Assembly (NCBI RefSeq): GCF_054482525.1
Contig: NZ_CM137006.1
DNA: 64,000 bases
Strand: one strand, 5' to 3'
Below are positions 311-55,659 of the stretch, one piece after another (position 1 is the first letter of the stretch; each line of letters starts with the position of its first letter). Below the pieces are notes generated by a model. It had not been told where the DNA came from and did not search any database. It saw only the letters and a list, made by a program, of their open reading frames with translations. Made by a program: the position numbers and the translations under genes.

Positions 311-1168
311 GTGAAAGCTGACAACCCTTTTGATCTTTTACTTCCTGCAGCAATGGCCAAAGTGGCCGAAGAGGCAGGTGTCTATAAAGCAACGAAACAT
401 CCGCTTAAGACTTTCTATCTGGCGATTACCGCCGGTGTTTTCATCTCAATCGCATTCGTCTTCTATATCACAGCAACCACTGGCACAGGAACAATGCCCT
501 TCGGCATGGCAAAACTGGTTGGCGGCATTTGCTTCTCTCTGGGGCTGATTCTTTGTGTTGTCTGCGGAGCCGATCTCTTTACTTCCACAGTGTTGATTGT
601 TGTTGCTAAGGCGAGTGGGCGCATCACCTGGGGTCAGTTGGCGAAAAACTGGCTAAATGTCTATTTTGGCAACCTGGTCGGCGCACTGCTGTTTGTACTT
701 TTAATGTGGCTTTCCGGCGAGTATATGACCGCGAATGGTCAATGGGGACTAAACGTCCTACAAACCGCCGACCACAAAGTGCACCATACTTTTATTGAGG
801 CCGTCTGTCTTGGTATCCTGGCAAACCTGATGGTATGTCTGGCAGTATGGATGAGTTATTCTGGCCGCAGCCTGATGGATAAAGCGTTCATTATGGTGCT
901 GCCGGTCGCGATGTTTGTTGCCAGCGGTTTTGAGCACAGTATCGCAAACATGTTTATGATCCCGATGGGTATTGTAATCCGCGACTTCGCATCTCCGGAA
1001 TTCTGGACCGCTGTCGGTTCTGCACCGGAAAATTTTTCTCACCTGACCGTGATGAACTTCATCACTGATAACCTGATTCCGGTTACGATCGGTAATATTA
1101 TCGGCGGTGGTTTGTTGGTTGGGTTGACATACTGGGTCATTTATCTGCGTGAAAACGATCACCATTAA
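311..1168 (+). CDS. focA: Formate channel FocA (285 aa, GTG start inside the longer ORF 38-1168)
   Basis: Translation from VKADNPFDLLLPAAMAKVAEEAGVYKATKH... to ...YLRENDHH matches FocA as I remember it; immediately upstream of pflB. Confidence 0.93.
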   Translation: MKADNPFDLLLPAAMAKVAEEAGVYKATKHPLKTFYLAITAGVFISIAFVFYITATTGTGTMPFGMAKLVGGICFSLGLILCVVCGADLFTSTVLIVVAKASGRITWGQLAKNWLNVYFGNLVGALLFVLLMWLSGEYMTANGQWGLNVLQTADHKVHHTFIEAVCLGILANLMVCLAVWMSYSGRSLMDKAFIMVLPVAMFVASGFEHSIANMFMIPMGIVIRDFASPEFWTAVGSAPENFSHLTVMNFITDNLIPVTIGNIIGGGLLVGLTYWVIYLRENDHH

Positions 1169-1222
1169 TGGTTGTCGAAGTACGCAGTAAATAAAAAATC
1201 CACTTAAGAAGGTAGGTGTTAC

Positions 1223-3505
1223 ATGTCCGAGCTTAATGAAAAGTTAGCCACAGCCTGGGAAGGTTTTACCAAAGGTGACTGGCAGAATGAAGTAAACGTC
1301 CGTGACTTCATTCAGAAAAACTACACTCCGTACGAGGGTGACGAGTCCTTCCTGGCTGGCGCTACTGAAGCGACCACCACCCTGTGGGACAAAGTAATGG
1401 AAGGCGTTAAACTGGAAAACCGCACTCACGCGCCAGTTGACTTTGACACCGCTGTTGCTTCCACCATCACCTCTCACGACGCTGGCTACATCAACAAAGC
1501 GTTGGAAAAAGTTGTTGGTCTGCAGACTGAAGCTCCGCTGAAACGTGCTCTTATCCCGTTCGGTGGTATCAAAATGATCGAAGGTTCCTGCAAAGCGTAC
1601 AACCGCGAACTGGACCCGATGATCAAAAAAATCTTCACTGAATACCGTAAAACTCACAACCAGGGCGTGTTCGACGTTTACACTCCGGACATCCTGCGTT
1701 GCCGTAAATCCGGTGTTCTGACCGGTCTGCCAGATGCTTATGGCCGTGGTCGTATCATCGGTGACTACCGTCGCGTTGCGCTGTACGGTATCGACTACCT
1801 GATGAAAGACAAACTTGCACAGTTCACCTCTCTGCAGGCTGATCTGGAAAACGGCGTAAACCTGGAACAGACTATCCGTCTGCGCGAAGAAATCGCTGAA
1901 CAGCACCGCGCTCTGGGTCAGATGAAAGAAATGGCTGCGAAATACGGCTACGACATCTCTGGTCCGGCTACCAACGCTCAGGAAGCTATCCAGTGGACTT
2001 ACTTTGGCTACCTGGCTGCTGTTAAGTCTCAGAACGGTGCTGCAATGTCCTTCGGTCGTACCTCCACCTTCCTGGATGTGTACATCGAACGTGACCTGAA
2101 AGCTGGCAAGATCACCGAACAAGAAGCGCAGGAAATGGTTGACCACCTGGTCATGAAACTGCGTATGGTTCGCTTCCTGCGTACTCCGGAATACGATGAA
2201 CTGTTCTCTGGCGACCCGATCTGGGCAACCGAATCTATCGGTGGTATGGGCCTCGACGGTCGTACCCTGGTTACCAAAAACAGCTTCCGTTTCCTGAACA
2301 CCCTGTACACCATGGGTCCGTCTCCGGAACCGAACATGACCATTCTGTGGTCTGAAAAACTGCCGCTGAACTTCAAGAAATTCGCCGCTAAAGTGTCCAT
2401 CGACACCTCTTCTCTGCAGTATGAGAACGATGACCTGATGCGTCCGGACTTCAACAACGATGACTACGCTATCGCTTGCTGCGTAAGCCCGATGATCGTT
2501 GGTAAACAAATGCAGTTCTTCGGTGCGCGTGCAAACCTGGCGAAAACCATGCTGTACGCAATCAACGGCGGCGTTGACGAAAAACTGAAAATGCAGGTTG
2601 GTCCGAAGTCTGAGCCGATCAAAGGCGATCTCCTGAACTACGATGAAGTGATGGAGCGCATGGATCACTTCATGGACTGGCTGGCTAAACAGTACATCAC
2701 TGCACTGAACATCATCCACTACATGCACGACAAGTACAGCTACGAAGCCTCTCTGATGGCGCTGCACGACCGTGACGTTATCCGCACCATGGCGTGTGGT
2801 ATCGCTGGTCTGTCCGTTGCTGCTGACTCCCTGTCTGCAATCAAATATGCGAAAGTTAAACCGATTCGTGACGAAGACGGTCTGGCTATCGACTTCGAAA
2901 TCGAAGGCGAATACCCGCAGTTTGGTAACAACGATCCGCGTGTAGATGACCTGGCTGTTGACCTGGTAGAACGTTTCATGAAGAAAATTCAGAAACTGCA
3001 CACCTACCGTGACGCTATCCCGACTCAGTCTGTTCTGACCATCACTTCTAACGTTGTGTATGGTAAGAAAACTGGTAACACCCCAGACGGTCGTCGTGCT
3101 GGCGCGCCGTTCGGACCGGGTGCTAACCCGATGCACGGTCGTGACCAGAAAGGTGCAGTAGCCTCTCTGACTTCCGTTGCTAAACTGCCGTTTGCTTACG
3201 CTAAAGATGGTATCTCCTACACCTTCTCTATCGTTCCGAACGCACTGGGTAAAGACGACGAAGTTCGTAAGACCAACCTGGCTGGTCTGATGGATGGTTA
3301 CTTCCACCACGAAGCATCCATCGAAGGTGGTCAGCACCTGAACGTTAACGTGATGAACCGTGAAATGCTGCTCGACGCGATGGAAAACCCAGAAAAATAT
3401 CCGCAGCTGACCATCCGTGTATCTGGCTACGCAGTACGTTTCAACTCGCTGACTAAAGAACAGCAGCAGGACGTTATTACTCGTACCTTCACTCAATCTA
3501 TGTAA
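1223..3505 (+). CDS. pflB: Pyruvate formate-lyase (760 aa)
   Basis: [31 protein letters not shown]... and C-terminal glycyl-radical region [29 protein letters not shown]; SD-like AAGAAGGTAGG upstream. Confidence 0.97.
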
Positions 3506-3547
3506 TTAGATTTGACTGAAATCGTACAGTAAAAAGCGTACAATAAA

Positions 3548-3573
3548 GGCTCCACGAAAGTGGGGCCTTTTTT
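3548..3573 (+). terminator. Rho-independent terminator downstream of pflB (GGCTCCACgaaaGTGGGGCC + T-run)
   Basis: GC-rich hairpin followed by TTTTTT immediately after the pflB stop. Confidence 0.55.
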
Positions 3574-3696
3574 AGCACGAGAGCCTTTTTTGTCAGCTAT
3601 CTATACTTTAAGGTGACTGCCAAAACAGACTCGACGTAGCCTTCGAGCTGCGCACCAACACGGCCTCAGATGGGCCACATCTGGAGAAACACCGCA

Positions 3697-4437
3697 ATGT
3701 CAGTTATTGGTCGCATTCACTCCTTTGAATCCTGTGGAACCGTAGACGGCCCGGGTATTCGCTTTATCACCTTTTTCCAGGGCTGCCTGATGCGCTGCCT
3801 GTATTGTCATAACCGCGACACCTGGGACACGCATGGCGGTAAAGAAGTTACCGTTGAAGATTTGATGAAAGAGGTGGTGACCTATCGCCACTTTATGAAC
3901 GCTTCCGGCGGCGGCGTTACCGCATCCGGCGGTGAAGCAATCCTGCAAGCTGAGTTTGTTCGTGACTGGTTCCGCGCCTGCAAAAAAGAAGGCATTCATA
4001 CCTGTCTGGATACCAACGGTTTTGTTCGTCGTTACGATCCGGTGATTGATGAACTGCTGGAAGTAACCGACCTGGTAATGCTCGATCTCAAACAGATGAA
4101 CGACGAGATCCACCAAAATCTGGTTGGAGTTTCCAACCACCGCACGCTGGAGTTTGCTAAATATCTGGCGAATAAAAATGTGAAGGTGTGGATCCGCTAC
4201 GTTGTTGTCCCAGGCTGGTCTGACGATGACGATTCAGCGCATCGCCTCGGTGAATTTACCCGTGATATGGGCAACGTTGAGAAAATCGAGCTTCTCCCCT
4301 ACCACGAACTGGGCAAACACAAATGGGTGGCGATGGGTGAAGAATACAAACTCGATGGTGTTAAACCACCGAAGAAAGAGACCATGGAACGCGTGAAAGG
4401 CATTCTTGAGCAGTACGGTCATAAGGTAATGTTCTAA
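3697..4437 (+). CDS. pflA: Pyruvate formate-lyase activating enzyme (radical SAM, 246 aa)
   Basis: [44 protein letters not shown] with CxxxCxxC radical-SAM motif; start taken at the internal ATG of ORF 3670-4437. Confidence 0.95.
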
Positions 4438-41378: not shown

Positions 41379-42062
41379 ATGACTGAATGGCTTAATGCAC
41401 ATTTTGGTGCAGACGCAGCTACCTATCTTAGCTTATTAGTCGGCGTACTGGCACTGTTTGGTATTGGGGGCGGTGTTACATATAGAATCAGACAGCAAAA
41501 CAACATAAAACAGAAGGCAAAGAAAACCGAGGGTGATGTGAACCAGGCCGGGCGGGATATTAATCAGACCACCAACGTTTACCACACATCCAATGAATCT
41601 ACTGAGGACCCTGTAAAAAAAAAGCAAGATGAACATGATCTGAAGATAATCGACCAGATCCTTGAATTGCTGCCTTATGAGGATACTACTCAATGGGTTG
41701 AGCAGAGCTACCTGAGCGGTATACGGCAAGATGTTTGCTTAAACATTGAAAAAGCTGAAAAATTTAGCGGTGAAAAGTATCGGTTATTCAATACTGAAGT
41801 GAATGGTGCGAAAGACGCTTTTTTGGACGCTATGACCGCATACGTAGATAGTACGCTACCATTTATGAGTGTTGATTACCCGAACAGAAAGCCAGTGATG
41901 CTAAGCCTTCCCCATGACTGGAAGAGTAAGAGTGTTGAATCGGAGGCAAACTTCCGCTTTCATCAGCAAAATGTGCGTGAAACATCGGGGGGGATGATTG
42001 CGCGCTATGAGGATTTTGTCAGGACATTTAAGGCTCATGGATTCATAAGCGATAAACTGTAA
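41379..42062 (+). CDS. Hypothetical N-terminally membrane-anchored protein (227 aa)
   Basis: ATG preceded by AAGGA and a TATAAT -10 box at 41343-41348; one predicted TM helix (YLSLLVGVLALFGIGGGV); own terminator downstream; no recognised domain. Confidence 0.6.
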   Translation: MTEWLNAHFGADAATYLSLLVGVLALFGIGGGVTYRIRQQNNIKQKAKKTEGDVNQAGRDINQTTNVYHTSNESTEDPVKKKQDEHDLKIIDQILELLPYEDTTQWVEQSYLSGIRQDVCLNIEKAEKFSGEKYRLFNTEVNGAKDAFLDAMTAYVDSTLPFMSVDYPNRKPVMLSLPHDWKSKSVESEANFRFHQQNVRETSGGMIARYEDFVRTFKAHGFISDKL

Positions 42063-42416: not shown

Positions 42417-43202
42417 ATGTACGATTATAGTTTTTTACTTACTCCATCTACAGGATTTGTTAAAGGATTATGTGGAGTTTGGTCGAATGATTTCTCTATA
42501 AATGATGATTCTGACTCTGATTTAGGGCAAACAGATATTCATTTACTTTCATCTCCTCATTTGAATATCATATCCGACCCAAATGAATTGGCTTCCAAGT
42601 TAAAAGGTTTGTTGATGCTCATGAACGGCGCACTTAGCGTTCTTTATGGTTTTGAAAGATATCAATCTTTTGGTCCTCTTTCTATTTCTGGAAGTGAAGG
42701 CATTAATTACTCGGAAATATGCGGCTTTAAATCAATGGATGTAACTCAGGTAAATCCCTTTAATTTCCATGACATACAGCAACCACACCCTCGCGCTGAT
42801 AATTTTTCACGATTAATTAATTTATCATCTAAACATGAATCCTTACGTGTTGTTTTAGGTATGTGTGCCTTAGGTTATGATTGGGTTAATCTTTATCGTT
42901 TGTGGGAAACAATTAGAGAATATGTATATGATAAATATGTGAAAGGTATACTAAATTTTCCCGACGCTTATAAAGGCAAGAAATATCAGAGAGATAAAGT
43001 AATTAGCATGGCTTTTAATATTGATGAAAAGGAAATCAGCAGATTCACGGGCACTGCTAATAGCTTTGAACTGTTAGGGTATCTTGCGAGACATGGAAAG
43101 GGAAGTTCCGGAGGGATATTAAAAAATCCGATGTCAAGAGTTGACGCAAGCAATTTCGTACACAAAGCAACTTACAAATATTGTAAGTTATTTTTGATGT
43201 AA
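42417..43202 (+). CDS. Hypothetical protein (261 aa), strongly AT-rich gene of likely foreign origin
   Basis: Clean ORF preceded by AAGAGGGA RBS; codon usage and GC content far below the flanking DNA; no recognised domain. Confidence 0.6.
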   Translation: MYDYSFLLTPSTGFVKGLCGVWSNDFSINDDSDSDLGQTDIHLLSSPHLNIISDPNELASKLKGLLMLMNGALSVLYGFERYQSFGPLSISGSEGINYSEICGFKSMDVTQVNPFNFHDIQQPHPRADNFSRLINLSSKHESLRVVLGMCALGYDWVNLYRLWETIREYVYDKYVKGILNFPDAYKGKKYQRDKVISMAFNIDEKEISRFTGTANSFELLGYLARHGKGSSGGILKNPMSRVDASNFVHKATYKYCKLFLM

Positions 43203-43363: not shown

Positions 43364-44116
43364 TCATTTAGGAATAATAGAATGCAATTCGTGACTCACC
43401 TGGATTTCATAGTGTTTCAATAGTTCTCCGATGTTAATTCCTACTACCTTACGAACTGCGCCGAGGGAGAAGTTAAGCTCCTCAATGCCCGGCCGATCTG
43501 GCGTTGAATTCATATAGTGTCGGCACGCACGGACAATTGACTCGACGATCAACGATAGCGGAGACTCAGGTGCAATCTCGGAGCGAATCGCCGTAAGAGA
43601 GAGTCGGAGCTCCTTCAAAGAATCCGAGACTCGTGCTGGATCCTCTTGAGCATATGGCAGATAAAGAGAACTCTTGTCTTCCAATAAATGGATCACCCGC
43701 AGAGCAATTTTCTCGTCTGGGCGATGCGATAGAAATTGAAACATTAGCCTCTTTCCTCCCTCCAAGCACTCCTTCATTAGTGATTCGTGGTCACGTTTCC
43801 ATTTTCGCAAATACTCGGCGGGGTAGCCCATACCGCCATTCTTATCAACTAAATCAGCACAAGCTCCGCACAACCATATAGCATTTTTTATGCTCTTCCG
43901 CTCTGTTTCTGACTGAGACATGTCATAGCGCGGTCCGCCAGGGCTCGCCGCGCAGATATGCGCCGCCTCACCCGTCTTGATAGAAAGATTTTCCGCCAAT
44001 TGATCCGGGCCGATTGTTACCCTATGACAAGAGGGATTGCTACAAATATATGTAGCGCGCTCTGCTACCTTACCTACAACGCTTGGAGGAAAGTTGTGCC
44101 TATTTGTCTTGGTCAT
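43364..44116 (-). CDS. Hypothetical protein with N-terminal HNH-nuclease-like motif (250 aa)
   Basis: CSNPSCH ... EAAHICAASPGGPRY ... NAIWLCGACADLVD resembles the Cys-pair/His/Asn arrangement of HNH endonucleases; C-terminal domain unrecognised. Confidence 0.55.
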   Translation of the reverse strand: MTKTNRHNFPPSVVGKVAERATYICSNPSCHRVTIGPDQLAENLSIKTGEAAHICAASPGGPRYDMSQSETERKSIKNAIWLCGACADLVDKNGGMGYPAEYLRKWKRDHESLMKECLEGGKRLMFQFLSHRPDEKIALRVIHLLEDKSSLYLPYAQEDPARVSDSLKELRLSLTAIRSEIAPESPLSLIVESIVRACRHYMNSTPDRPGIEELNFSLGAVRKVVGINIGELLKHYEIQVSHELHSIIPK

Positions 44117-45089
44117 AAAAGTTATGCTTCTTTGTTTTTTTCATCTATGTGGGGAGAATAAAATCATACTTTTTATATCTGATCCTAGGTCTGACCAGCA
44201 ACCTATTGATCAAAAAACCAAGATATTAGCTAAAAAAAATCAGCATACTTGAGACCAAGCTCAATGTCCGCTCCTCGCTCAAAGCAGACCATTCGCTCAG
44301 TTAACGCATCAGTGTCGTGCTAAAAGTAGACGTGGTTAACAACAATGTGAGTTAATCAACGGAGAGCAGGTCAACTCTAACCTGTATCAAAAAAACAAAT
44401 GTGTCACAAAGATGCCGCATGCCTTAATTTGAGTATAATTGAGACGGAAGTAGACGGTTTATGGCTAAATATTGTTGATATATAGCTATTTGAAGAGTTG
44501 TAGCGCAAGTGTATAGCCCAAACTAATAACGCTACGCCCCTTACCTTTGACGCCTCTTATCAAAGAGCGGCGATGATGCACAGCCCGCACGAGGCAATAT
44601 TCGCACAAGAATCAGGTTCAGAAATAACCTGATCTGGCATGGTGGGGAGAGTATCACTGAGCAGGCTTTCGGTAAAATGCGGCGGGATGAGGTCGGCGTG
44701 GGTTGCAGCAGTACAATGTCGCCCGCAGAGGGTAAGCCACAGCGCGGGATCCTCGGTTTCTATCAGGGATTCGACGAAGTGGGCGCAGTTGTCGACCAAG
44801 GCGGTGAAATCCATAGTGACATTATAAGGAAACGAACAATAGATCGAGTAAATCGCAGTCAGGGACAAGGATTGTAGTCATAGAGAAGTCTCCTGTAACG
44901 GTTTTCAGGAAGCTAATCCCGACGCCTGATTTTGCAGGCGCGGAAGGAGAAGATACTGCGGCCATTAATCCGCCACAAGGCATTTACGTGCATAAATCGC
45001 GCAGTCAAATCCGACTCCCACTGTAGTTCTTGAACCTGATACCACATTTAGCTAATTTAGCTAACTTATCTATTATACCAGTGGTTGCC

Positions 45090-45335
45090 ATGAATATGAA
45101 TGAAGACGAGATTTATCGCCATATCCGGCAGGCACTTTCCAGTGCGCCTCGTAACCAGTACACCGTCGAGCTGCACCTGCAAATGATTAAATATGCCGAC
45201 AAACTGGAACACATTACGGCAAAAGCCTTTTGCGAAGGCACTGGTCTGAACCAGAGCCTCGGTACCGAATTCAGCAAAATGCGTAACTTAACCCATCGGT
45301 TAAAGGCCGCCGGTCTGAATACCGATCTGCTGTAA
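45090..45335 (+). CDS. Small hypothetical protein immediately upstream of hsdM (about 81 aa; start uncertain)
   Basis: ORF 45030-45335 ending 40 bp before hsdM; MNMNEDEIYRHIRQALSSAPRNQYTVELHLQMIKYADKLEHITAKAF... Confidence 0.35.
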   Translation: MNMNEDEIYRHIRQALSSAPRNQYTVELHLQMIKYADKLEHITAKAFCEGTGLNQSLGTEFSKMRNLTHRLKAAGLNTDLL

Positions 45336-45374: not shown

Positions 45375-47813
45375 ATGGCTATCAAAAAAACCGAACTCTA
45401 TTCTTCCCTGTGGGCAAGCTGCGACGAACTGCGTGGCGGGATGGACGCCAGCCAGTACAAAGACTATGTACTGACCCTGCTGTTTATGAAGTACGTTTCC
45501 GATAAGTATAAAGGCGATCCTTACGGGATGATCGTGATACCCAAAGGAGCCAGCTTTGACGATATGGTTGCGCTGAAAAATGACAAAGAGATCGGCGACA
45601 AAATCAACAAAATCATCCACAAGCTGGCGGAAGAGAACGGCCTGAAGGGCGTCATCGACGAAGCCGACTTTAACGACGAAGATAAGCTCGGCAAAGGCAA
45701 GGAAATGATTGACCGCCTGAGCAAGCTTGTCGGTATCTTTGAAGGGTTAAATCTCTCCAGCAACCGGGCCGAAGGCGACGATCTGCTGGGCGATGCCTAT
45801 GAATATCTGATGCGTCACTTCGCAACCGAATCCGGTAAGAGTAAAGGGCAGTTTTACACTCCAGCGGAGGTGTCACGTATTCTGGCGAAGGTGATTGGTA
45901 TTACTCCCGATACTCCGCAAGATGCAACGGTTTATGACCCAACCTGTGGCTCTGGTTCGCTGCTGTTGAAAGTGAATGATGAAGCCCGGCGCGGACTGTC
46001 GATTTTCGGCCAGGAGATGGATAACGCTACCAGTGCGCTGGCGCGGATGAACATGATTCTGCATAACAATGCCACCGCGAAAATCTGGCAGGGCAATACG
46101 CTGAGCGATCCGCAGTGGAAAGAGGCGAACGGCAAACTGAAAGCCTTCGATTTTGCCGTGGCGAACCCGCCTTTTTCCAATAAAAACTGGACCAACGGGC
46201 TGACGCCGAAAAAAGATCCGTTTGAACGCTTCGGCTGGGGTATTCCGCCGGAAAAAAACGGCGATTATGCTTTTTTGTTGCATATCATTAAAAGCCTGAA
46301 AAGTACCGGCAAAGGCGCGGTGATCCTGCCCCACGGCGTACTGTTTCGCGGTAACGCCGAAGCGAATATCCGTGAAAATCTAATCAAGCAGGGCTATATC
46401 AAAGGCGTTATTGGTTTGCCAGCCAACCTGTTTTACGGCACCGGCATCCCGGCGTGCATCATTGTGATTGATAAAGAGCACGCCCACAGCCGCAAAGGCA
46501 TTTTTATGATCGACGCCAGCCGGGGCTTTATCAAAGATGGCAACAAGAACCGCCTGCGTAGCCGAGATATTCACCGCATTGTGGACGTGTTCAACCATCA
46601 GCGAACGGTACCTGGCTACAGCCGGATGGTGCCCTCCAGCGAGATCGCCGGAAATGATTACAACCTGAATATTCCTCGCTATATCGAGAGCGGCGAGCCG
46701 GAAGATTTACACGATCTGACCGCGCACTTACAGGGCGGTATTCCGGCACGCGATGTGGATGCTTTGCAAGATTACTGGCGGGTATTCCCTGCCCTGCGCA
46801 ACGTGCTGTTTGCTGACGACCGTCCCGGTTACTGTCGGGCGCAGGTGAACGCGCAACAGGTGAAACCGACCATTCTGGCGCATCAGGAGTTTAAGGATTT
46901 TGCCACCCGCAGCCTGCTACCGTTTAAAGCGTGGGTGAAAGAGGCAAGTCTGGAAGAGATTCGCAAAGGTGATAAACCCAAAGCGCTAATCCACGATATC
47001 AGCGAAATGCTATTGGCGCAGTACGCCAACAGTGAGTTGCTGAACAAATACAGCGTGTACCAGATCCTGATGGATTACTGGACTGATGTCATGCAAGACG
47101 ATGTGTATGCGATTATGCAGGATGGCTGGCAAGCCGCCGCGCAAATCCGCGAGCTTCAGCCGGTGAAAGGCAAAGATGGCAAAAACATCTGGAAAGAAAC
47201 GCACGATTTCGAGTTTACCAAACGGCGCTACAAGGCCGATGTGCTGCCCCGTTCGCTGGTGGAAATTCGCTGTTTCCCGGAACTGCTGGATGCGCTGAAC
47301 CGCGCGCAGGAGCGCAGTGAAGAAGCCAGTCGTCAGCTAGTGGAATTCATCGAGGAGCAGGCAGGTGAAGAGGATCTGCTGGCCGAGGCGAAGAACGATA
47401 AAGATAAGGTGACGCAAAAGCTGGTGAATGCCCGTCTAGCACAGTTAAAGAAAACCACTGCCGGCCCAGATGAGCTGGCAGTGCTGAACCGCTGCCTGGC
47501 GCTAATTAAGGCCGAAGCCAGTGCGAAAAAAGCGCTGAAAGCCGCACAAGAAGCGCTGGATCGGGCGGTGTTTAAACATTATCCCACGCTGGATGAAGCA
47601 GCGATTAAAACGCTGGTAGTGCAGGATAAGTGGCTGGCAACGTTGCAGGCAGGGATCAAGGCGGAGATTGAGCGTATTACCCAGCAACTGGCGTCGCGCG
47701 TAAAGGAGCTGGAAGAGCGTTATGCTGAACCGTTGCTAGCGCTTGAAGCCTCCGTTGAGGCGTTGAGCGAGAAAGTGGCCGAGCATTTGCGGGCGATGGG
47801 GCTGGAGTGGTGA
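45375..47813 (+). CDS. hsdM: Type I restriction-modification methyltransferase subunit HsdM, unusually long (812 aa) with a C-terminal coiled-coil-like extension
   Basis: AdoMet motif DPTCGSGSLL and catalytic NPPF (VANPPFSNKNW) in the first ~470 aa; last ~300 aa are Ala/Glu/Lys-rich helical. Confidence 0.88.
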   Translation: MAIKKTELYSSLWASCDELRGGMDASQYKDYVLTLLFMKYVSDKYKGDPYGMIVIPKGASFDDMVALKNDKEIGDKINKIIHKLAEENGLKGVIDEADFNDEDKLGKGKEMIDRLSKLVGIFEGLNLSSNRAEGDDLLGDAYEYLMRHFATESGKSKGQFYTPAEVSRILAKVIGITPDTPQDATVYDPTCGSGSLLLKVNDEARRGLSIFGQEMDNATSALARMNMILHNNATAKIWQGNTLSDPQWKEANGKLKAFDFAVANPPFSNKNWTNGLTPKKDPFERFGWGIPPEKNGDYAFLLHIIKSLKSTGKGAVILPHGVLFRGNAEANIRENLIKQGYIKGVIGLPANLFYGTGIPACIIVIDKEHAHSRKGIFMIDASRGFIKDGNKNRLRSRDIHRIVDVFNHQRTVPGYSRMVPSSEIAGNDYNLNIPRYIESGEPEDLHDLTAHLQGGIPARDVDALQDYWRVFPALRNVLFADDRPGYCRAQVNAQQVKPTILAHQEFKDFATRSLLPFKAWVKEASLEEIRKGDKPKALIHDISEMLLAQYANSELLNKYSVYQILMDYWTDVMQDDVYAIMQDGWQAAAQIRELQPVKGKDGKNIWKETHDFEFTKRRYKADVLPRSLVEIRCFPELLDALNRAQERSEEASRQLVEFIEEQAGEEDLLAEAKNDKDKVTQKLVNARLAQLKKTTAGPDELAVLNRCLALIKAEASAKKALKAAQEALDRAVFKHYPTLDEAAIKTLVVQDKWLATLQAGIKAEIERITQQLASRVKELEERYAEPLLALEASVEALSEKVAEHLRAMGLEW

Positions 47814-49147
47814 TGGTGGATTTAATGGTGAATGAGCAACGGTCGAGTACGGCGGGGAAAGATGTGCCTGCGGGGTATAAACTGACTGAGGTGGGCGTGA
47901 TTCCTGAGGATTGGGATTGCGTACCATTTGGTAATCTGTTTAAAACAAACACAAAGAAAAAAAAAGTCAGCGATTATGAGCTAGTTTCATTTATTGGGAT
48001 GCAAGATGTTAGTGAAGATGCACAATTAAAAAATAATACTCAACTTCCTTTTAAAGAAGTTAAAAGTGGTTTTACTTACTTTGAAAAAGGGGATGTTTTA
48101 TTAGCTAAAATAACCCCTTGTTTTGAAAATGGAAAAGGATGTCATACCGCTGATTTACCTACTAATGTAGGTTTTGGGAGTACGGAATTTCATGTATTAA
48201 GGGAAAATGAAGACTCCGATTCTCGCTTCATCTATTTTTGGACAACTGATAAAAAATTCAGAGCATCACTGGAATCTGAAATGGTGGGAAGTGCGGGACA
48301 CCGTCGTGTGCCGCTAGTTGCTATAGAAAAATATTTGATTCCATGTCCCCCAAATTTGCAAGAGCAAAGTGCTATTGCTGATTCATTATCTGATATTAAT
48401 AATTTTATTCTAGCTCTAGAAAAGCTTATCGTTAAAAAACAAGCCATTAAAACCGCTACTATGCAGCGACTACTGACTGGTAAAACCCGTTTGCCACAGT
48501 TTGCGTTGCGCAAAGATGGCTCTGCTAAGGGATATAAAAAGAGCGAGTTGGGGGAGATTCCTGAAGATTGGAATTGTATTAATCTTGGTGAGCTAGGTAA
48601 TTGCATTATTGGGTTAACTTACAAACCTGAAGATACATCTGATTATGGTACATTGGTATTACGCTCATCCAACATTCAAAATAATCACTTAGCTTATGAT
48701 GATAACGTCTTCGTCAGCATAGAACCACCTGAGCGCACAATTGTGAAAGAAGGTGATATCTTGGTATGTGTAAGAAATGGCAGTCGCCAACTTATTGGCA
48801 AATGCGCATTAATTGACAAAAATGCGCAGGGCTCAGCATTCGGTGCATTTATGTCAGTATTCCGAACTGATATATATGGATTTACATTTCACCAATTCCA
48901 GTCTGATATTATTCAAAAGCAAATCGCTGAAGTTATGGGTGCCACTATCAATCAGATAACTAACAAAGATATGTTGGGCTTTAAAATCCCATTACCTGAA
49001 AATACAGAAGAACAAGCCGCCATCGCCGCCATCCTCTCCGATATGGACAAGGAAATCCAGATCCTGCAACAGCGTCTGGACAAAACCCGCCAGCTTAAGC
49101 AAGGGATGATGCAGGAACTGTTAACCGGGAAAATCCGCTTAATATAG
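47813..49147 (+). CDS. hsdS: Type I restriction-modification specificity subunit HsdS (two AT-rich target-recognition domains)
   Basis: Conserved central and C-terminal repeats (…LLTGKTRLPQF… and …QELLTGKIRLI) flanking two variable AT-rich domains; ATG overlaps the hsdM stop (ATGA). Confidence 0.85.
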   Translation: MVDLMVNEQRSSTAGKDVPAGYKLTEVGVIPEDWDCVPFGNLFKTNTKKKKVSDYELVSFIGMQDVSEDAQLKNNTQLPFKEVKSGFTYFEKGDVLLAKITPCFENGKGCHTADLPTNVGFGSTEFHVLRENEDSDSRFIYFWTTDKKFRASLESEMVGSAGHRRVPLVAIEKYLIPCPPNLQEQSAIADSLSDINNFILALEKLIVKKQAIKTATMQRLLTGKTRLPQFALRKDGSAKGYKKSELGEIPEDWNCINLGELGNCIIGLTYKPEDTSDYGTLVLRSSNIQNNHLAYDDNVFVSIEPPERTIVKEGDILVCVRNGSRQLIGKCALIDKNAQGSAFGAFMSVFRTDIYGFTFHQFQSDIIQKQIAEVMGATINQITNKDMLGFKIPLPENTEEQAAIAAILSDMDKEIQILQQRLDKTRQLKQGMMQELLTGKIRLI

Positions 49148-49159
49148 AAGGGAAAGCAC

Positions 49160-49816
49160 ATGGCTTATGATTACAGCGCCAGCCTCAACCCGCAAAAAGC
49201 TCTGATCTGGCGTATCGTCCATCGGGACAATATCCCGTGGATTCTGGATAACGGGCTGCACTGCGGCAACAGTCTGGTGCAGGCGGAAAACTGGATCAAT
49301 ATCGGCAACCCGGAGCTGATCGGCAAGCGTGCCGGGCATCCGGTACCTGTCGGAACGGGCGGGACACTGCATGACTATGTGCCGTTTTATTTTACCCCCT
49401 TCTCGCCAATGCTGATGAACATCCACAGCGGGCGCGGCGGCATTAAGCAACGCCCCAATGAGGAGATCGTTATTCTGGTCAGCAACTTGCGAAACGTGGC
49501 AGCACACGACGTACCCTTCGTGTTTACCGACAGCCATGCTTACTATAACTGGACCAACTACTACACCAGTCTGGATAGTCTGGACCAGATCGACTGGCCC
49601 ATTTTGCAGGCACGGGACTTTCGCCGCGATCCAGACGATCCGGCTAAATTTGAACGCTATCAGGCAGAGGCGCTAATCTGGCAACACTGCCCGATCTCTC
49701 TGCTGGATGGGATAATTTGTTACAGCGAAGAGGTCAGGTTACAATTAGAACAATGGCTGTTTCAGCGTAATCTAACAATGTCCGTTCACACACGGGCTGG
49801 ATGGTACTTCTCATGA
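49160..49816 (+). CDS. darT: DarT-like DNA ADP-ribosyltransferase toxin (DUF4433, 218 aa)
   Basis: [38 protein letters not shown]... matches E. coli DarT as I recall it; followed by a macrodomain gene with overlapping stop/start. Confidence 0.8.
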
Positions 49817-50880
49817 TCACATATACACAAGGCAATTTACTGGACGCACCGGTGGAAGCTCTGGTGAATACGGTTAATACCGTCGGTGTCATGGGGAAAG
49901 GCATCGCGTTGATGTTTAAAGAGCGCTTCCCCGAAAATATGAAAGTCTATGCCCTCGCCTGCAAACAAAAGCAGGTGATCACCGGCAAAATGTTCATTAC
50001 CGAAACCGGGGAACTGATGGGACCGCGCTGGATTGTTAATTTTCCGACCAAACAGCACTGGCGCGCTGATTCCCGCATGGAGTGGATTGAAGATGGCTTG
50101 CAGGACTTACGCCGCTTTTTGATTGAAGAGAACGTGCAGTCCATCGCCATTCCACCACTGGGCGCAGGCAACGGTGGTTTGAACTGGCCGGACGTTCGGG
50201 CGCAGATTGAATCTGCCCTTGGCGACCTTCAGGACGTTGATATCCTGATTTACCAACCGACTGAAAAATACCAGAACGTTGCCAAAAGCACTGGCGTAAA
50301 AAAGCTCACTCCCGCCAGAGCCGCCATCGCTGAACTGGTGCGTCGCTACTGGGTATTGGGGATGGAGTGCAGCCTACTGGAAATCCAGAAACTGGCCTGG
50401 CTGTTACAACGCGCCATTGAGCAGCATCAACAGGACGATATCCTCAAACTGCGGTTTGAAGCTCACTATTATGGCCCCTATGCGCCCAATCTGAACCATC
50501 TGCTTAATGCGCTGGACGGCACCTATCTTAAAGCCGAGAAACGCATCCCGGACAGCCAACCGCTGGATGTGATCTGGTTTAACGATCAGAAAAAAGAACA
50601 CGTTAATGCGTATCTGAACAACGAAGCCAGAGAGTGGCTACCTGCGCTGGAGCAGGTCAGCCAGTTAATTGACGGCTTTGAATCGCCGTTTGGTCTGGAG
50701 TTGCTGGCAACCGTAGACTGGTTGCTGAGCCGTGGCGAATGTCAACCAACGCTGGATTCCGTTAAGGAAGGGCTGCACCAGTGGCCTGCGGGCGAACGCT
50801 GGGCCAGCCGTAAGTTGAGGCTGTTTGATAATAATAATCTGCAATTTGCCATTAACCGCGTAATGGAGTTCCATTGCTGA
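49813..50880 (+). CDS. darG: DarG-like macrodomain antitoxin (about 355 aa; alternative start at 49801)
   Basis: N-terminal macrodomain [39 protein letters not shown]; ATG overlaps the darT stop (ATGA). Confidence 0.8.
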
Positions 50881-50898
50881 GGGTTTAAGGAGCGCCTT

Positions 50899-53800
50899 TT
50901 GAGTACCGTGGGCCAGCGCGAACGCGCCACACAGCAGCGTCTGATTCAGTTTTTTGTTGAAGATTTAGGTTACCGCCATCTGAGTCACCGCACCGGGTAC
51001 ACCGGGAACAGCAACATCGACACTAATATACTGAGCGCGTGGCTAAAACGGCGCGGCGTTAATGATACGTTGATCACCCGGGCGTTGCGGCAACTGGATT
51101 CCGCCGCCGCTCTGGGCGAAGGCAAAAAACTCTATTACGCCAATAAAGAGGTCTATCGCCTGCTGCGTTACGGCGTGAAAGACAAAGAAGGCGCAGGCGA
51201 GCAGAACCAAACCGTGTGGCTGATTGACTGGGCCAACCCACAAGCCAATGATTTCGCCATCGCCGATGAGGTGACGGTCAAAGGCGAGTACTGCAAGCGC
51301 CCGGATCTGGTGCTGTACGTTAACGGCATTGCGCTGGGCGTGATTGAACTTAAGCGTTCGTCAGTGCACGTCAGCGAAGGCATCCGGCAGAATCTCGATA
51401 ATCAAAAGAAAACCTTTATCCGCGATTTCTTCACCACTATGCAGTTAGTGATGGCGGGCAACGATACGCAGGGCCTGCGCTACGGCACCATCGAAACCCC
51501 GGAAAAATACTATCTGGAGTGGAAAGAAGATAATCCAGGCGACTATACACATAAACTCGACTTTCATTTAAGTCGTCTGTGTAGCAAATCCAGGCTGTTG
51601 GATATCGTCCATAATTACATTGCCTTTGATGTCGGGGTGAAAAAACTCTGCCGCCATAATCAGTTCTTCGGCGTCGAGGCGGCTAAACAACATATTGCCC
51701 GTCGTGAAGGCGGTATTATCTGGCACACACAGGGATCGGGTAAAAGCCTGACGATGGTCTGGCTGGCGAAGTGGATCCGTGAAAATGTGCCAAACTCCCG
51801 CGTGTTGATTGTGACTGACCGCACCGAACTGGATGAACAGATCGAAAGCGTGTTTATGGGCGTGAATGAAGATATTTATCGCACCTCCAGCGGCAACGAT
51901 CTTATCGCAACGCTCAATCATCCTAACCCGTGGCTCATTTGCTCGCTGGTGCATAAATTTGGTCGTCGCAGCGAAGCTGAAGACAATGCGGCTACCGACG
52001 CCTTTATCACCGAATTACAGCAGTCCCTGACGAAAACATTCCGCGCCAAAGGCGATCTGTTTGTTTTTGTGGACGAGTGCCACCGCACACAATCCGGCAA
52101 GCTGCATAACGCCATGACTGCCATTCTGCCGGACGCCCTGTTTATCGGTTTTACCGGCACACCGCTGATGAAGAAAGATAAGAAGAAGTCGGTTGAGGTG
52201 TTCGGCCCTTATATCCATACCTATAAATTTGATGAAGCGGTGGCCGACGGTGTGGTGCTGGATCTGCGCTACGAGGCACGCGATATTGACCAGTATCTGA
52301 CATCAGAGAAAAAGGTCGATGACTGGTTTGAAGCCAAGACTCGCGGTTTGTCGAATTTAGCCAGGACCCAGCTTAAGCAAAAGTGGGGATCAATGCAGAA
52401 GCTGCTCTCCAGCAAGTCGCGGCTGGAGCAGATCGTTAACGACATTTTGCTGGATATGGATACCCGTCCACGCCTGATGGACGGGCGCGGCAACGCCATG
52501 CTGGTATGCAGCAGTATCTATCAAGCCTGCAAGGTTTACGAGATGTTCAGCCAGACCGAGCTGGCAGGAAAAGTAGCGATTGTGACCAGCTATCGCCCCG
52601 ATGCCGCCAGCATCAAAGGCGAAGAAACGGGCGAAGGGTTAACGGAGAAACTCTCTAAACACGCCACCTATCGTAAAATGTTGGCTGACTATTTTGAACA
52701 AAGTGAAGAGAAGGCCGCCGCACGCATTACCGAGTTCGAGCGGGAAATGAAACAGCGTTTTATTGAAGAGCCGGGGCAAATGCGCCTGCTTATCGTGGTG
52801 GATAAGCTGCTGACTGGCTTTGACGCGCCGTCCGCCACCTATCTCTACATTGATAAAACCATGACCGACCATACGCTGTTTCAGGCGATTTGTCGGGTGA
52901 ACCGGCTGGACGGTGAGGATAAAGAGTATGGCTATATTATCGATTATAAAGATCTGTTCCGTTCGCTGGATAAAGCGATTACCGATTACACCACGGGCGC
53001 GTTTGATGATTACGATCGGGACGATGTGGCCGGGTTGCTGAAAGACAGGCTGGAGCAGGCGCAACTGGATCTCGACAGCGCGCTGGAGATGGTTCGCAGC
53101 TTATGTGAACCCGTCAAAACCCCGCGCAGCCTGCTGGACTATCAGCACTATTTTTGCGGTGAATCAGGAGAGAATCAGACTTCGTTAAACGAAAAAGAGG
53201 CGCTGCGCCTGACATTTTACCAGTGCGTCGCCCGTCTGCTACGCGCTTATGCCAGCATCGCCAATGAAATGCCGGAAGCAGGCTACACTGCCGAAGAGGT
53301 AGAGAGCATTCGCGCCGAAGTCGCTGAATTCGAAAAACTGCGCTATGAGATTAAGCTGACCAGCGGCGATCTTCTGGATATGAAGCGCTTTGAACCCGCT
53401 ATGCGTCATTTACTGGATATGTATGTTCGCGCCGATGGTAGCGAAGTGCTGATGGATTTTGAAGAGTTAAGTCTGATTGAACTGATTGTCGAGAAAGGCT
53501 TGGCGGCGACCGTCGCCCTGCCGGATGATATCCGTAATAATCAGGATGCGATGGCGGAAACCATCGAAAACAACGTGCGCAAAACCATCGTGGATGAAAA
53601 CCCGGTTAACCCAAAATACTATGGACGCATGTCGCAGCTGCTGGATGAACTGATTACCCTTCGCCGACAAAATGCGCTCAATTATCAGCAGTATCTGGAA
53701 CGTATCCGCGATTTGTGTAAACAGGTCATCCGCCCGGAGCAAACCGCCGGAGCGTGCTACCCTGCCACCATGGATACACAAGCAAAGCGCGCCTTCTATG

Positions 53801-53994
53801 ATAACTTCGGCCACGACGAGGTACTGGCGACCCGCATAGATACGACGATTCGCTATACCAAAAGGGCAGAGTGGATTGGCGATCGTTTTAAAGAACGGGA
53901 AATTGCCAACGCATTACGTGAAGAGACCGCCAGCTATAATATTGATATTGATGAGGTGATAGCGCTTGCCCGTCAGCAGAAGGAATATCACTGA
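50899..53994 (+). CDS. hsdR: Type I restriction enzyme endonuclease/helicase subunit HsdR (1031 aa, TTG start after AAGGAG)
   Basis: Helicase motif I HTQGSGKSLTMV, motif II LFVFVDECHRTQSG; size typical of HsdR. Confidence 0.88.
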   Translation: MSTVGQRERATQQRLIQFFVEDLGYRHLSHRTGYTGNSNIDTNILSAWLKRRGVNDTLITRALRQLDSAAALGEGKKLYYANKEVYRLLRYGVKDKEGAGEQNQTVWLIDWANPQANDFAIADEVTVKGEYCKRPDLVLYVNGIALGVIELKRSSVHVSEGIRQNLDNQKKTFIRDFFTTMQLVMAGNDTQGLRYGTIETPEKYYLEWKEDNPGDYTHKLDFHLSRLCSKSRLLDIVHNYIAFDVGVKKLCRHNQFFGVEAAKQHIARREGGIIWHTQGSGKSLTMVWLAKWIRENVPNSRVLIVTDRTELDEQIESVFMGVNEDIYRTSSGNDLIATLNHPNPWLICSLVHKFGRRSEAEDNAATDAFITELQQSLTKTFRAKGDLFVFVDECHRTQSGKLHNAMTAILPDALFIGFTGTPLMKKDKKKSVEVFGPYIHTYKFDEAVADGVVLDLRYEARDIDQYLTSEKKVDDWFEAKTRGLSNLARTQLKQKWGSMQKLLSSKSRLEQIVNDILLDMDTRPRLMDGRGNAMLVCSSIYQACKVYEMFSQTELAGKVAIVTSYRPDAASIKGEETGEGLTEKLSKHATYRKMLADYFEQSEEKAAARITEFEREMKQRFIEEPGQMRLLIVVDKLLTGFDAPSATYLYIDKTMTDHTLFQAICRVNRLDGEDKEYGYIIDYKDLFRSLDKAITDYTTGAFDDYDRDDVAGLLKDRLEQAQLDLDSALEMVRSLCEPVKTPRSLLDYQHYFCGESGENQTSLNEKEALRLTFYQCVARLLRAYASIANEMPEAGYTAEEVESIRAEVAEFEKLRYEIKLTSGDLLDMKRFEPAMRHLLDMYVRADGSEVLMDFEELSLIELIVEKGLAATVALPDDIRNNQDAMAETIENNVRKTIVDENPVNPKYYGRMSQLLDELITLRRQNALNYQQYLERIRDLCKQVIRPEQTAGACYPATMDTQAKRAFYDNFGHDEVLATRIDTTIRYTKRAEWIGDRFKEREIANALREETASYNIDIDEVIALARQQKEYH

Positions 53995-54710
53995 TGCCAA
54001 TCATGCAAATAGGCTCGTTACACTTGCTGGTCAACCGTAAGGCGATTAAGAATCTGCATATCAGCGTGCTGCCGCCTGATGGCAAAGTACGCGTTTCAGC
54101 GCCGGAACATATGACGGAGACGGCGATTCGTATGGCGGTTGCTTCACGCTTTCGCTGGATCAGAAAACAGCAGCAGGATTTCGCCAGACAGCCTCGTCAA
54201 TCAGAGAGGGAAATGGTCAGCGGAGAGTGCCACTATCTTTGGGGCCGAAGATATCGCCTACTTGTGATTGAGCGTCACGGGCGTCACGAAGTAAAAGTTG
54301 CAGGAAATAATAAGCTCCAGCTTTATGTTCAACCAGGAACCCGTGATGAAAATAAGGCATTGGCGTTAAGTGAATTTTATCGACATGAACTAAAACAGCA
54401 GGTGGCTAAGCTTCTACCTGAATGGCAGGACCGAATCGGTGTTCCCCTAACATTCTGGGGCATCAAAAAGATGAAAACCTTTTGGGGCACCTGTAACACT
54501 ACAACAAAACGAATCTGGCTCAATCTGGAGCTAATTAAGAAGCCGCCGGAGTGTCTGGAGTATATTCTGGTGCATGAACTGGTTCATCTTCTGGAACGTC
54601 ACCATAATGCTCGCTTCCGGTTGCATATGGATCGGTTTATTCCTGACTGGCGTGAGCGTCGGGATTTGTTAAATAATATGCCGTTAGCGTTTGAGGCATG
54701 GGAGTATTGA
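53994..54710 (+). CDS. Zinc metallopeptidase-like protein (YgjP/DUF45/M48-like, HExxH), start overlapping the hsdR stop
   Basis: HELVHLLERHH motif; ATG at 53994 overlaps the hsdR TGA. Confidence 0.7.
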   Translation: MPIMQIGSLHLLVNRKAIKNLHISVLPPDGKVRVSAPEHMTETAIRMAVASRFRWIRKQQQDFARQPRQSEREMVSGECHYLWGRRYRLLVIERHGRHEVKVAGNNKLQLYVQPGTRDENKALALSEFYRHELKQQVAKLLPEWQDRIGVPLTFWGIKKMKTFWGTCNTTTKRIWLNLELIKKPPECLEYILVHELVHLLERHHNARFRLHMDRFIPDWRERRDLLNNMPLAFEAWEY

Positions 54711-55079: not shown

Positions 55080-55659
55080 ACGCAAGTTCAGAGCGACTAC
55101 GAACTCGAACCACAATCTGCCAGTTGCGCCAAATCTGCTGAACCAGACGTTCGCTCCTACAGCACCAAATCAGGTCTGGGTGGCGGACCTGACGTATGTT
55201 GCCACACAGGAGGGATGGTTGTACCTCGCTGGCATCAAAGATGTTTATACGTGCGAAATTGTCGGCTACGCCATGGGAGAGCGCATGACAAAAGAGCTGA
55301 CAGGTAAAGCCCTGTTTATGGCGCTCAGGAGCCAGCGCCCACCTGCCGGGCTAATCCATCACTCTGATCGAGGTTCACAGTACTGCGCATACGATTACCG
55401 GATCATACAGGAGCAGTTTGGTCTGAAAACGTCAATGTCGCGTAAAGGTAACTGTTACGACAACGCTCCGATGGAAAGCTTCTGGGGAACGCTGAAAAAT
55501 GAGAGCCTGAGCCACTATCGTTTTAATAACCGGGATGAAGCCATCTCAGTAATACGGGAATACATTGAGATTTTCTACAATCGTCAGCGTCGTCACTCTC
55601 GTCTGGGGAATATCTCCCCGGCAGCCTTCAGGGAAAAATATCATCAGATGACTGCTTAA
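55080..55659 (+). mobile_element. IS3-family transposase fragment (C-terminal DDE/integrase part of orfB only)
   Basis: ...PNQVWVADLTYVATQEGWLYLAGIKDVYTCEIVGYAM...HSDRGSQYCAYDY...NCYDNAPMESFWGTLKNE... is the DDE-domain C-terminal half; no N-terminal half, orfA or inverted repeats seen. Confidence 0.75.

Follow-up and report, generated by a model that had tools for sequence, protein, structure and literature searches.

What is the function of the long C-terminal part of the HsdM protein encoded in this stretch of 64,000 nucleotides (NCBI RefSeq assembly GCF_054482525.1, contig NZ_CM137006.1; hereafter the window), and is it a peculiarity of the locus? The hsdM gene encodes a long-form type I methyltransferase subunit of 812 amino acids. 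A first-pass annotation, made from the sequence alone, had set this length against a canonical 500-530 aa, called the extension unusual and coiled-coil-like and linked it to a neighboring DarTG toxin-antitoxin pair. The single 812-aa reading frame it described stands: hsdM runs without interruption from 45375 to 47813 (+ strand), and an identical protein is catalogued in RefSeq as WP_000985465.1.

The methyltransferase core (45402..46697, + strand) consists of an HsdM_N domain at residues 10-121 (Pfam, E = 2e-16) and an N6_Mtase domain at residues 135-441 (E = 2e-103), and both the SAM motif DPTCGSGS and the NPPF motif (residues 264-267) are found in the window protein. HsdM scores 282.8 bits against the NCBI hsdM equivalog model TIGR00497, above the curated cut-off of 242.75, and its operon partners are hsdS (47813..49147) and hsdR (50899..53994). 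Judged by its domains, the NCBI cut-off and its operon, the protein is a type I restriction-modification methyltransferase subunit. Past residue 441 the Pfam search of HsdM returned no significant match, and alignments against all solved HsdM chains end at query residues 443-453. The core thus stops near residue 450 and the tail comprises 362 further residues. The extension noted at first pass is therefore real, with its start shifted to about residue 451 (position 46725 rather than 46800) and its size to 362 rather than about 300 aa. A canonical range of 500-530 aa is also too narrow, as solved HsdM chains span 445-638 aa and the PADLOC type I methyltransferase profiles 410-1236 positions.

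The long form proved to be the usual size within a recognised type I family, the very outcome that the first-pass annotation had named as refuting its claim, and cannot be called unusual. HsdM residues 1-812 align to positions 1-810 of the 810-position PADLOC profile PDLC03027 with 1426 bits. The tail alone still scores 438.8 bits against profile positions 451-810 and matches three PADLOC models (PDLC03027, PDLC03022 and PDLC03032). As a query on its own, the tail was found behind an N6_Mtase core in 2180 cluster representatives (50% identity clusters), and it is present in at least 584 species genomes covering bacteria and archaea. HsdM is a single reading frame in 69 of 80 species loci, with a median length of 815 aa among those 69, and full-length hsdM occurs in 248 complete E. 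coli genomes. A majority of roughly 520-aa proteins among close relatives of the core would contradict a family trait; the opposite was seen. At the level of structure, the HsdM fold is common to 214 AFDB50 clusters; the best 50 of these, barring two unnamed fragments, are annotated either as adenine methyltransferases or as M subunits of type I systems. In four relatives (P0133, P0178, P0188 and L073), core and tail are naturally fused to half an HsdS (one TRD and one conserved helix). Stand-alone tail proteins were considered as an independent module and rejected: P0091 and P0081 each correspond to the 3' half of an hsdM gene that has been split in a decayed locus. In one of these loci hsdR is fragmented and a transposase pair of the IS21 family (IstB/rve) separates it from hsdM; the other lacks hsdR. 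By these sequence comparisons, the tail is no peculiarity of this locus: a large long-HsdM family of type I systems carries it as its standard C-terminal domain, passed on vertically. The window HsdM is a catalogued RefSeq protein and a typical PDLC03027 member. In relatives matching PDLC03032, the helical tip of the tail is enlarged by insertions of about 100-200 aa.

The genes around hsdM, all on the + strand, indicate which partners accompany the tail. The island promoter and RptR operator region (45030..45072) contains a -35 element (TTGAAC), TAGCTA palindromes at 45049 and 45058 and a degenerate third copy (TATCTA), in agreement with the promoter described in PMC12255303. It is followed by rptR (45096..45335), encoding a small HTH-like repressor of the island according to the RefSeq annotation of an identical locus and the same paper. 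Downstream of hsdM lies hsdS (47813..49147), which encodes a specificity subunit with two TRDs and whose ATG overlaps the hsdM TGA by 1 nt. The DarTG2 pair darT-darG (49160..50880) occupies the slot between hsdS and hsdR as cargo. The hsdR gene (50899..53994) encodes 1031 aa with Pfam domains on residues 6-685 and no Pfam domain on residues 686-1031, a C-terminal third that is specific to the family. A gene for a YgjP-like (M48/SprT-like) metallopeptidase (53994..54710) completes the island.

Among the 57 related loci that reach hsdR, an M48 peptidase gene directly follows hsdR in 55, and across species a long HsdM is accompanied by an HsdR of 1030 aa and a YgjP-like peptidase. Gene order and sequence similarity thus delineate a long-HsdM module in which HsdM (about 815 aa) and HsdS are followed by a slot for variable cargo, then by HsdR (about 1030 aa) and the YgjP-like peptidase. 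DarTG is not a fixed part of it. DarG is encoded in only 10 of the 57 long-HsdM loci reaching hsdR; the slot holds other defence genes elsewhere, for example two DUF262 genes in an E. coli plasmid relative. The proposal that the long form tracks with DarTG consequently did not hold up, nor did the placement of the tail immediately upstream of DarTG, given that hsdS intervenes. Within E. coli, long hsdM and DarTG do occur one-to-one (248 genomes each, counted at ≥95% nucleotide identity) because a single island lineage is being counted. The tail is not an adaptation to DarTG.

Sequence comparison also identifies the window locus as the published RRDM defence island of EPEC E2348/69 (Zhang et al., NAR 2025, PMC12255303). 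Both share the same seven genes in the same order (RptR-HsdMS-DarTG2-HsdR-M48) as well as the same promoter and TAGCTA operators. The accessions of the RRDM DarG (WP_000634203.1) and M48 peptidase (WP_001122107.1) recur in a genome that shares its hsdM with the window at 100% nucleotide identity. The HsdM alleles differ (WP_000985465.1 in the window, WP_000985463.1 in EPEC RRDM), and the specificity of the window hsdS is probably different from that of EPEC RRDM. In that study, phage protection was conferred by the EPEC island, with HsdM F267A as the inactive, no-defence control construct; the mutated position is F267 of the NPPF motif in the window protein. The passages of the paper covered here make no mention of the HsdM tail.

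AlphaFold2 predicts full-length HsdM with a pLDDT of 94.3 and a pTM of 0.90 and the tail alone with a pLDDT of 95.9. In sequence order, a globular alpha/beta region (residues 451-633) is followed by long antiparallel helices (residues 634-807). Tail part 1 (residues 451-633; 46725..47273, + strand), the predicted conserved globular subdomain, carries the motif YQxLMDYWxExMQDDxYxIxxxGW with invariant or near-invariant W520, Y559, W569, D575, D576, G584 and W585. Tail part 2 (residues 634-812; 47274..47810, + strand) is predicted to form helices at residues 635-662, 698-738, 741-782 and 787-807, the longest of 41-42 residues, with conserved K752, W753, R775, R782 and Y783 and an HLxxMG motif at the end. 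Residues 663-697 form a small tip at which relatives carry insertions of 40-120 aa. The window HsdM possesses W569, D575, D576, G584, W585, K752, W753, R782, Y783 and HLxxMG, all invariant or at least 90% conserved in the family alignments (A1-A3). In this model, the tail is a rigid, acidic two-part module in which a globular subdomain packed on the core precedes a helical stalk.

The description of the tail as coiled-coil-like and rich in alanine, glutamate, lysine and leucine therefore applies to one of its parts. These four residues make up 43.6% of the tail vs 30.0% of the core (chi-square p = 8e-5), and the enrichment is limited to the last 150-180 residues: 56.6% for residues 661-812 and 32% for residues 451-633, which are aromatic-rich. 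Likewise, coiled-coil-like character is found in the last 180 or so residues, while residues 451-633 are predicted to be globular alpha/beta. Heptad regularity in the tail is weak. Its net charge is -7 in the window protein (family median -17, range -32 to +4). Its dN/dS is 0.09-0.12, compared with 0.03-0.07 for the core; by these ratios the tail is under purifying selection, and no other part of the operon evolves as fast. Searches of the tail in Pfam (single sequence and alignment), NCBIfam and PHROGs yielded no significant match. Phmmer and profile searches against the PDB returned insignificant helical noise (MukF, GldL, ATP synthase b), and fold comparison revealed no solved structure like the tail and no ligand-binding, sensor or DNA-binding fold. 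A literature search for an HsdM C-terminal extension found nothing relevant, and the review passages covered contain no discussion of long HsdM forms.

Comparison with solved enzymes clarifies what the tail might replace. The N-terminal and catalytic domains of the canonical type IC-like HsdMs of EcoR124I (7BST), PacII (7VRU) and S. thermophilus (3LKD) align with the window protein at 27-33% identity, with TM-scores of 0.74-0.81 on the target and at most 0.50 on the query over about 500 aligned columns. These proteins of 499-542 aa end in a short helical segment of about 30-55 residues and do not possess the 362-residue domain. The window system falls outside type IC (EcoR124I), as HsdM identity is 27-29% by structural alignment and the tail is absent from EcoR124I. 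The window HsdR most resembles that of EcoR124I, with a match spanning residues 101-696 only (E = 2e-35). KpnBI, the type IE prototype, reportedly has a long hsdM of 2631 bp with a one-base overlap with hsdS, a length and an overlap that would fit the window architecture.

Assembly is the most plausible function of the tail. We assign a probability of roughly 65% to the reading that the tail is a family-standard domain, independent of DarTG and needed to assemble M2S1 and R2M2S1 complexes via HsdS and/or the HsdR C-terminus, contacts that we infer by analogy. In canonical enzymes, HsdM ends in a helical tail that binds the conserved helices of HsdS, and the start of a TRD adjoins this M C-terminus (PMC3510504). 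The tail would take the place of this short helical tail, with the last helix of the stalk ending where HsdS begins, and would dock two M subunits onto the conserved HsdS helices. Its family-specific surface could in addition recruit the C-terminal third of HsdR, which is just as specific to the family, so that both M2S1 and R2M2S1 assembly would require it. Given that no sequence similarity was found between the tail and the C-terminal tails of solved HsdMs, replacement is argued from position only. The 1-nt hsdM/hsdS overlap and the natural fusions to half an HsdS were counted toward the assembly role. The fused relatives resemble the Type IMS M-S fusions (Roberts et al., NAR 2012, PMC3510504), unlike the window HsdM, which is unfused and whose gene overlaps hsdS by the ordinary 1 nt. 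Families that lack the tail also allow M-S fusions to be made (PMC3510504); fusions speak for nearness of the termini rather than for a role of the tail. The net acidic charge across the family fits protein contacts better than DNA contacts. Divergence of the tail correlates with that of the HsdR C-terminal region when both catalytic cores are controlled for (partial rho 0.48, p = 4e-4; M48 control 0.08), but the 50 loci behind this figure share a phylogeny, a confounder that leaves only a weak hint, since common ancestry makes everything correlate.

At 360 residues, the tail far exceeds what HsdS binding needs and an additional function is likely. One candidate, which we regard as unlikely but the best placed of the alternatives, is a regulatory or sensor module that would control the licensing of HsdR or else interact with the YgjP-like metallopeptidase, as its partner or its target (proteolytic alleviation of restriction is one example), and that may in this way couple restriction to the slot cargo. 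The joint conservation of tail, HsdR C-terminus and M48 peptidase in 55 of 57 loci is consistent with such a role, as are the size of the tail relative to a simple HsdS-binding helix and its fast evolution, which might be expected of a surface facing phage anti-restriction proteins. Divergence of the helical part shows a weak correlation with that of M48 (partial rho 0.32, p = 0.024), but the globular part shows none (0.08), the tail has no recognisable sensor or ligand-binding fold, and it remains constant alongside freely varying cargo.

A true intermolecular coiled coil formed by the helical part, dimerising HsdM or building higher-order assemblies, is more doubtful still. The 41-42-residue helices rich in A, L, E and K would suit it and the monomer prediction is compatible with helix swapping, but that prediction packs the helices on each other and on the globular part (pLDDT 94-98, pTM 0.90), and heptad regularity is weak. 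Canonical type I methylases, as modeled for EcoKI and EcoR124I, surround bound DNA with two M subunits. A large domain that is, in the model, rigidly joined to the methyltransferase core could act as an extra clamp gripping DNA beside the target site; the acidic net charge of the tail and the lack of any detected DNA-binding fold make this improbable. Finally, the few database entries holding the tail as a separate 360-400 aa ORF might point to an artefact, either a frameshift in sequencing or hsdM having recently fused to a downstream gene. This is refuted by the single ORF conserved in E. coli and in most species loci, by the full-length PADLOC profile and by purifying selection on the tail, the two separate ORFs checked being split genes.

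For the window itself little is at stake, as the protein is catalogued, the island published and the length normal for the family. The wider point concerns a common type I architecture, present in hundreds of species of bacteria and archaea, in which a confidently predicted HsdM domain of 360 residues and a C-terminal HsdR region of 345 residues both have neither a domain model nor a solved structure. To our knowledge, all that is understood of type I enzyme structure derives from short-HsdM families. It is conceivable, though we consider it improbable, that the tail co-evolves with the HsdR C-terminal third and the YgjP-like peptidase and acts as a gate on the recruitment of HsdR, or on restriction alleviation, in what is possibly a type IE architecture; if such gating were true, the system would work unlike the EcoKI and EcoR124I paradigms. 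A structure of the long-HsdM family would reveal whether M2S1/R2M2S1 assembly and the role of the YgjP-like peptidase depart from textbook models.

The window hsdM is a single unbroken ORF (45375..47813, + strand) encoding 812 residues, the length given in the first-pass annotation. Its Pfam domains are HsdM_N (residues 10-121) and N6_Mtase (135-441), the catalytic NPPF motif occupies residues 264-267, and residues 71-444 score 282.8 bits against the NCBIfam hsdM equivalog TIGR00497 (curated cut-off 242.75). No significant Pfam match was found after residue 441, and the alignments of all solved HsdM proteins (3LKD, PacII 7VRU, EcoR124I 7BST, EcoKI and others) end at query residues 443-453. The extra region, or tail, therefore comprises residues 451-812 (window 46725-47810, + strand). 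An extension is thus present as first described, but it begins at 46725 instead of 46800 and spans 362 rather than about 300 amino acids. Its reported richness in Ala, Glu, Lys and Leu is likewise partly correct. These residues account for 43.6% of the tail compared with 30.0% of the HsdM core (p = 8e-5), but the enrichment sits in the last ~150-180 residues (56.6%), whereas residues 451-633 contain 32% and many aromatic residues.

AlphaFold2 modeling of full-length HsdM yielded a mean pLDDT of 94.3 and a pTM of 0.90, with values of 94-98 for the tail (150-sequence alignment), and the tail modeled alone reached a pLDDT of 95.9 (65 sequences). The high pTM implies, at the level of the model, a fixed position of the tail with respect to the HsdM core. 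Residues 451-633 are predicted to adopt a mixed alpha/beta globular fold in which short helices and two small beta units accompany a long conserved helix (558-583), while residues 634-812 are predicted to form long helices (635-662, 681-693, 698-738, 741-782 and 787-807) arranged as an intramolecular antiparallel bundle. The proposed coiled-coil-like character consequently applies to the second half of the tail and not to the globular first half. Relatives of 870-940 amino acids carry 40-120 extra residues between the positions aligned to ~680 and ~700. This insertion site is the tip that the model places between two long helices, consistent with a protruding stalk. Conserved clusters in the tail are YQxLMDYWxExMQDDxYxIxxxGW (559-585), DKW (751-753), RxxxLxxRYxxPL (775-787) and HLxxMG (804-809).

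A sequencing frameshift or gene merger as the source of the long form is ruled out by the conservation of the single ORF across species and by a tail dN/dS of 0.09-0.12 against four close relatives (core, 0.03-0.07). P0091 and P0081, two cluster-representative proteins in which the tail has its own ORF, are not stand-alone proteins: each is the 3' half of an hsdM gene that is split at a decayed locus. At one of these loci hsdM and a fragmented hsdR are separated by an IS21-family (IstB/rve) transposase pair, and the other lacks hsdR. A further representative, P0248 (1054 aa), links HsdR residues ~55-573 with the tail and the final 60 residues of the HsdM core, and could reflect either chimeric assembly or gene recombination.

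The long HsdM had been regarded as unusual. We find instead that it has the common length of a recognised type I family. An 810-position PADLOC type I methyltransferase profile (PDLC03027) matches residues 1-812 end to end with 1426 bits, and the tail is also part of two more PADLOC models (857 and 1001 positions). The window protein is an HsdM of this long-form subfamily and shows all features tested. Searching 1.84 billion cluster representatives with the tail only identified 2180 proteins at E <= 1e-3, of which 1148 reached E <= 1e-10. In every match with its N-terminus present, the tail was C-terminal to an HsdM core. Core and tail form a single ORF in 69 of the 80 best loci, with a median length of 815 aa (804-842 aa in 65). 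A scan using one genome per species located the tail in at least 584 genomes, including Cyanobacteria, Planctomycetota, Chloroflexota, Actinomycetota, Campylobacterota and methanogenic archaea, and hsdM was found in 257 of 5426 complete E. coli genomes (full length in 248). A Foldseek search of AFDB50 with the tail model returned 214 clusters at E <= 1e-3, from sources including Streptomyces, Leptospira, Finegoldia, Campylobacter, Helicobacter and Nostoc. The best 50 matches are annotated as adenine methyltransferases or type I M subunits, except for two unnamed fragments, and the full-length proteins among them measure about 800-1040 aa. The enzymes nearest to the cores of the window system are type IC-like, at 27-33% identity; the system itself is not type IC. 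The type IE prototype KpnBI reportedly has an hsdM of 2631 bp and a one-base overlap with hsdS, a size and overlap that would fit the window architecture.

The gene order of the locus is rptR (45096..45335), hsdM, hsdS, darT-darG (darT at 49160), hsdR (50899..53994) and, directly after hsdR, a YgjP-like/SprT-like M48 metallopeptidase (53994..54710; PF01863, E = 1.6e-61). Since hsdS lies between the tail and darT, the extension is not immediately upstream of DarTG as had been stated. The RRDM island of EPEC E2348/69 has an identical gene order (PMC12255303), and its promoter is described with the -35 TTGAAC and TAGCTA operators also found in the window. A genome with a 100% identical hsdM, labeled 'type I restriction-modification system subunit M' (WP_000985465.1), carries DarG and M48 accessions equal to those in that paper. 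An HsdM F267A construct served there as the inactive, no-defence control (PMC12255303); F267 in the window protein is the phenylalanine of NPPF. The accessible text of that paper contains no mention of HsdM length. The locus is an already published island, and its long HsdM is typical of a family that is known and widespread.

Contrary to the suggested link, the long HsdM does not track with DarTG. Among 57 related loci that extend as far as hsdR, DarG is encoded in only 10 and DarT in 8, whereas a YgjP-like peptidase overlaps or abuts the end of hsdR in 55. The equal E. coli counts (248 genomes with full-length hsdM, 248 with DarTG) belong to a single island lineage (>=95% nucleotide identity) rather than reflecting independent associations. 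An HsdR of ~1030 aa and the peptidase accompany the long HsdM constantly; DarTG does not. The distance from hsdS to hsdR varies from -120 to 6152 bp across the 57 loci (window slot 49148-50898), and slots lacking DarTG hold other defence-type genes, including DUF262/GmrSD-like genes (PADLOC HEC-06/Orf5) and OLD/AAA-like plus SIR2-like pairs (loci L005, L007, L009, L020, L038, L042 and L086). In an E. coli plasmid relative (L086, NZ_OZ547065.1), whose HsdM has 818 aa, this position is occupied by two DUF262 genes. The hsdS-hsdR slot is a cargo hotspot of the long-HsdM type I family.

Sequence divergence is much faster in the tail than in the core, with 54% and 88% identity, respectively, to the plasmid relative, to which the megablast match ends after the first 1109 nt of hsdM, and 60% and 88% to a Pseudidiomarina HsdM (L005). 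GC content falls to 0.36-0.38 inside hsdS (48000-49000), compared with 0.51-0.54 in hsdM and hsdR, which fits target-recognition domains (TRDs) acquired by recombination from another source. A region of low GC (0.34-0.40) at about 42.0-44.5 kb, just upstream of rptR, contains a 250-aa ORF (43364-44116, - strand) whose N-terminal domain is HNH-nuclease-like. This ORF has matches to the PADLOC candidate PDC-M68A (E = 6.6e-24) and to CBASS-type HNH effectors and, judged by sequence, may be another defence gene. ORFs at 41379-42062 and 42417-43202 (both + strand; 227 and 261 aa) gave no PADLOC or NCBIfam match. The spacing between a GTPase gene and rptR is ~2 kb longer in the window than in strain CFSAN061761, and this stretch is therefore variable between strains. 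Directly downstream of the island lies an IS3-family (IS600-like) transposase remnant (55180-55659, + strand), identified by the annotation of the identical locus in CFSAN061761.

Foldseek alignments of the full HsdM model to the PDB cover about 500 columns, corresponding to the core only (query TM <= 0.50), and sequence and profile searches of the PDB, Pfam, NCBIfam and PHROGs with the tail returned no matches. The tail domain is therefore structurally and functionally uncharacterised, though its family is catalogued, and this is where the remaining interest of the long HsdM lies. A role in DNA binding is disfavoured by its net acidic charge (-7 in the window HsdM; family median -17). In EcoR124I structures, the C-terminal part of HsdR contacts HsdM. 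The corresponding end of the window HsdR (residues 686-1031, window 52954-53991) matches no Pfam domain and does not resemble EcoR124I HsdR. Divergence of the globular part of the tail correlates with HsdR C-terminal divergence (partial rho 0.48, p = 4e-4), a correlation controlled for divergence of both catalytic cores and confounded by shared ancestry; the equally fast-evolving YgjP-like peptidase shows no such tracking (rho 0.08). The stop codon of hsdM and the start codon of hsdS share one base (47813), the same overlap as in canonical type I methylases, and natural single chains fuse core and tail to one TRD plus one conserved helix (P0133, 1031 aa; P0178; P0188; L073). Such core, tail and half-HsdS fusions of the same family ('Type IMS') measure 1014-1037 aa, with that of L073 at 700-3804. 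In canonical enzymes the end of the M chain adjoins the start of a TRD, which accounts for both overlap and fusability, and each HsdM binds conserved HsdS helices through a short helical tail at its C-terminus (PMC3510504). Overlap, fusions, acidic charge, the HsdR C-terminus and divergence tracking together lead us to infer that the tail is the assembly platform of the long-HsdM family. On this view the HsdS helices would carry the terminal helices of the tail, and the globular part of the tail would face the HsdR C-terminus. The size of the tail leaves room for a second, regulatory function, which may be linked to the ever-present peptidase.
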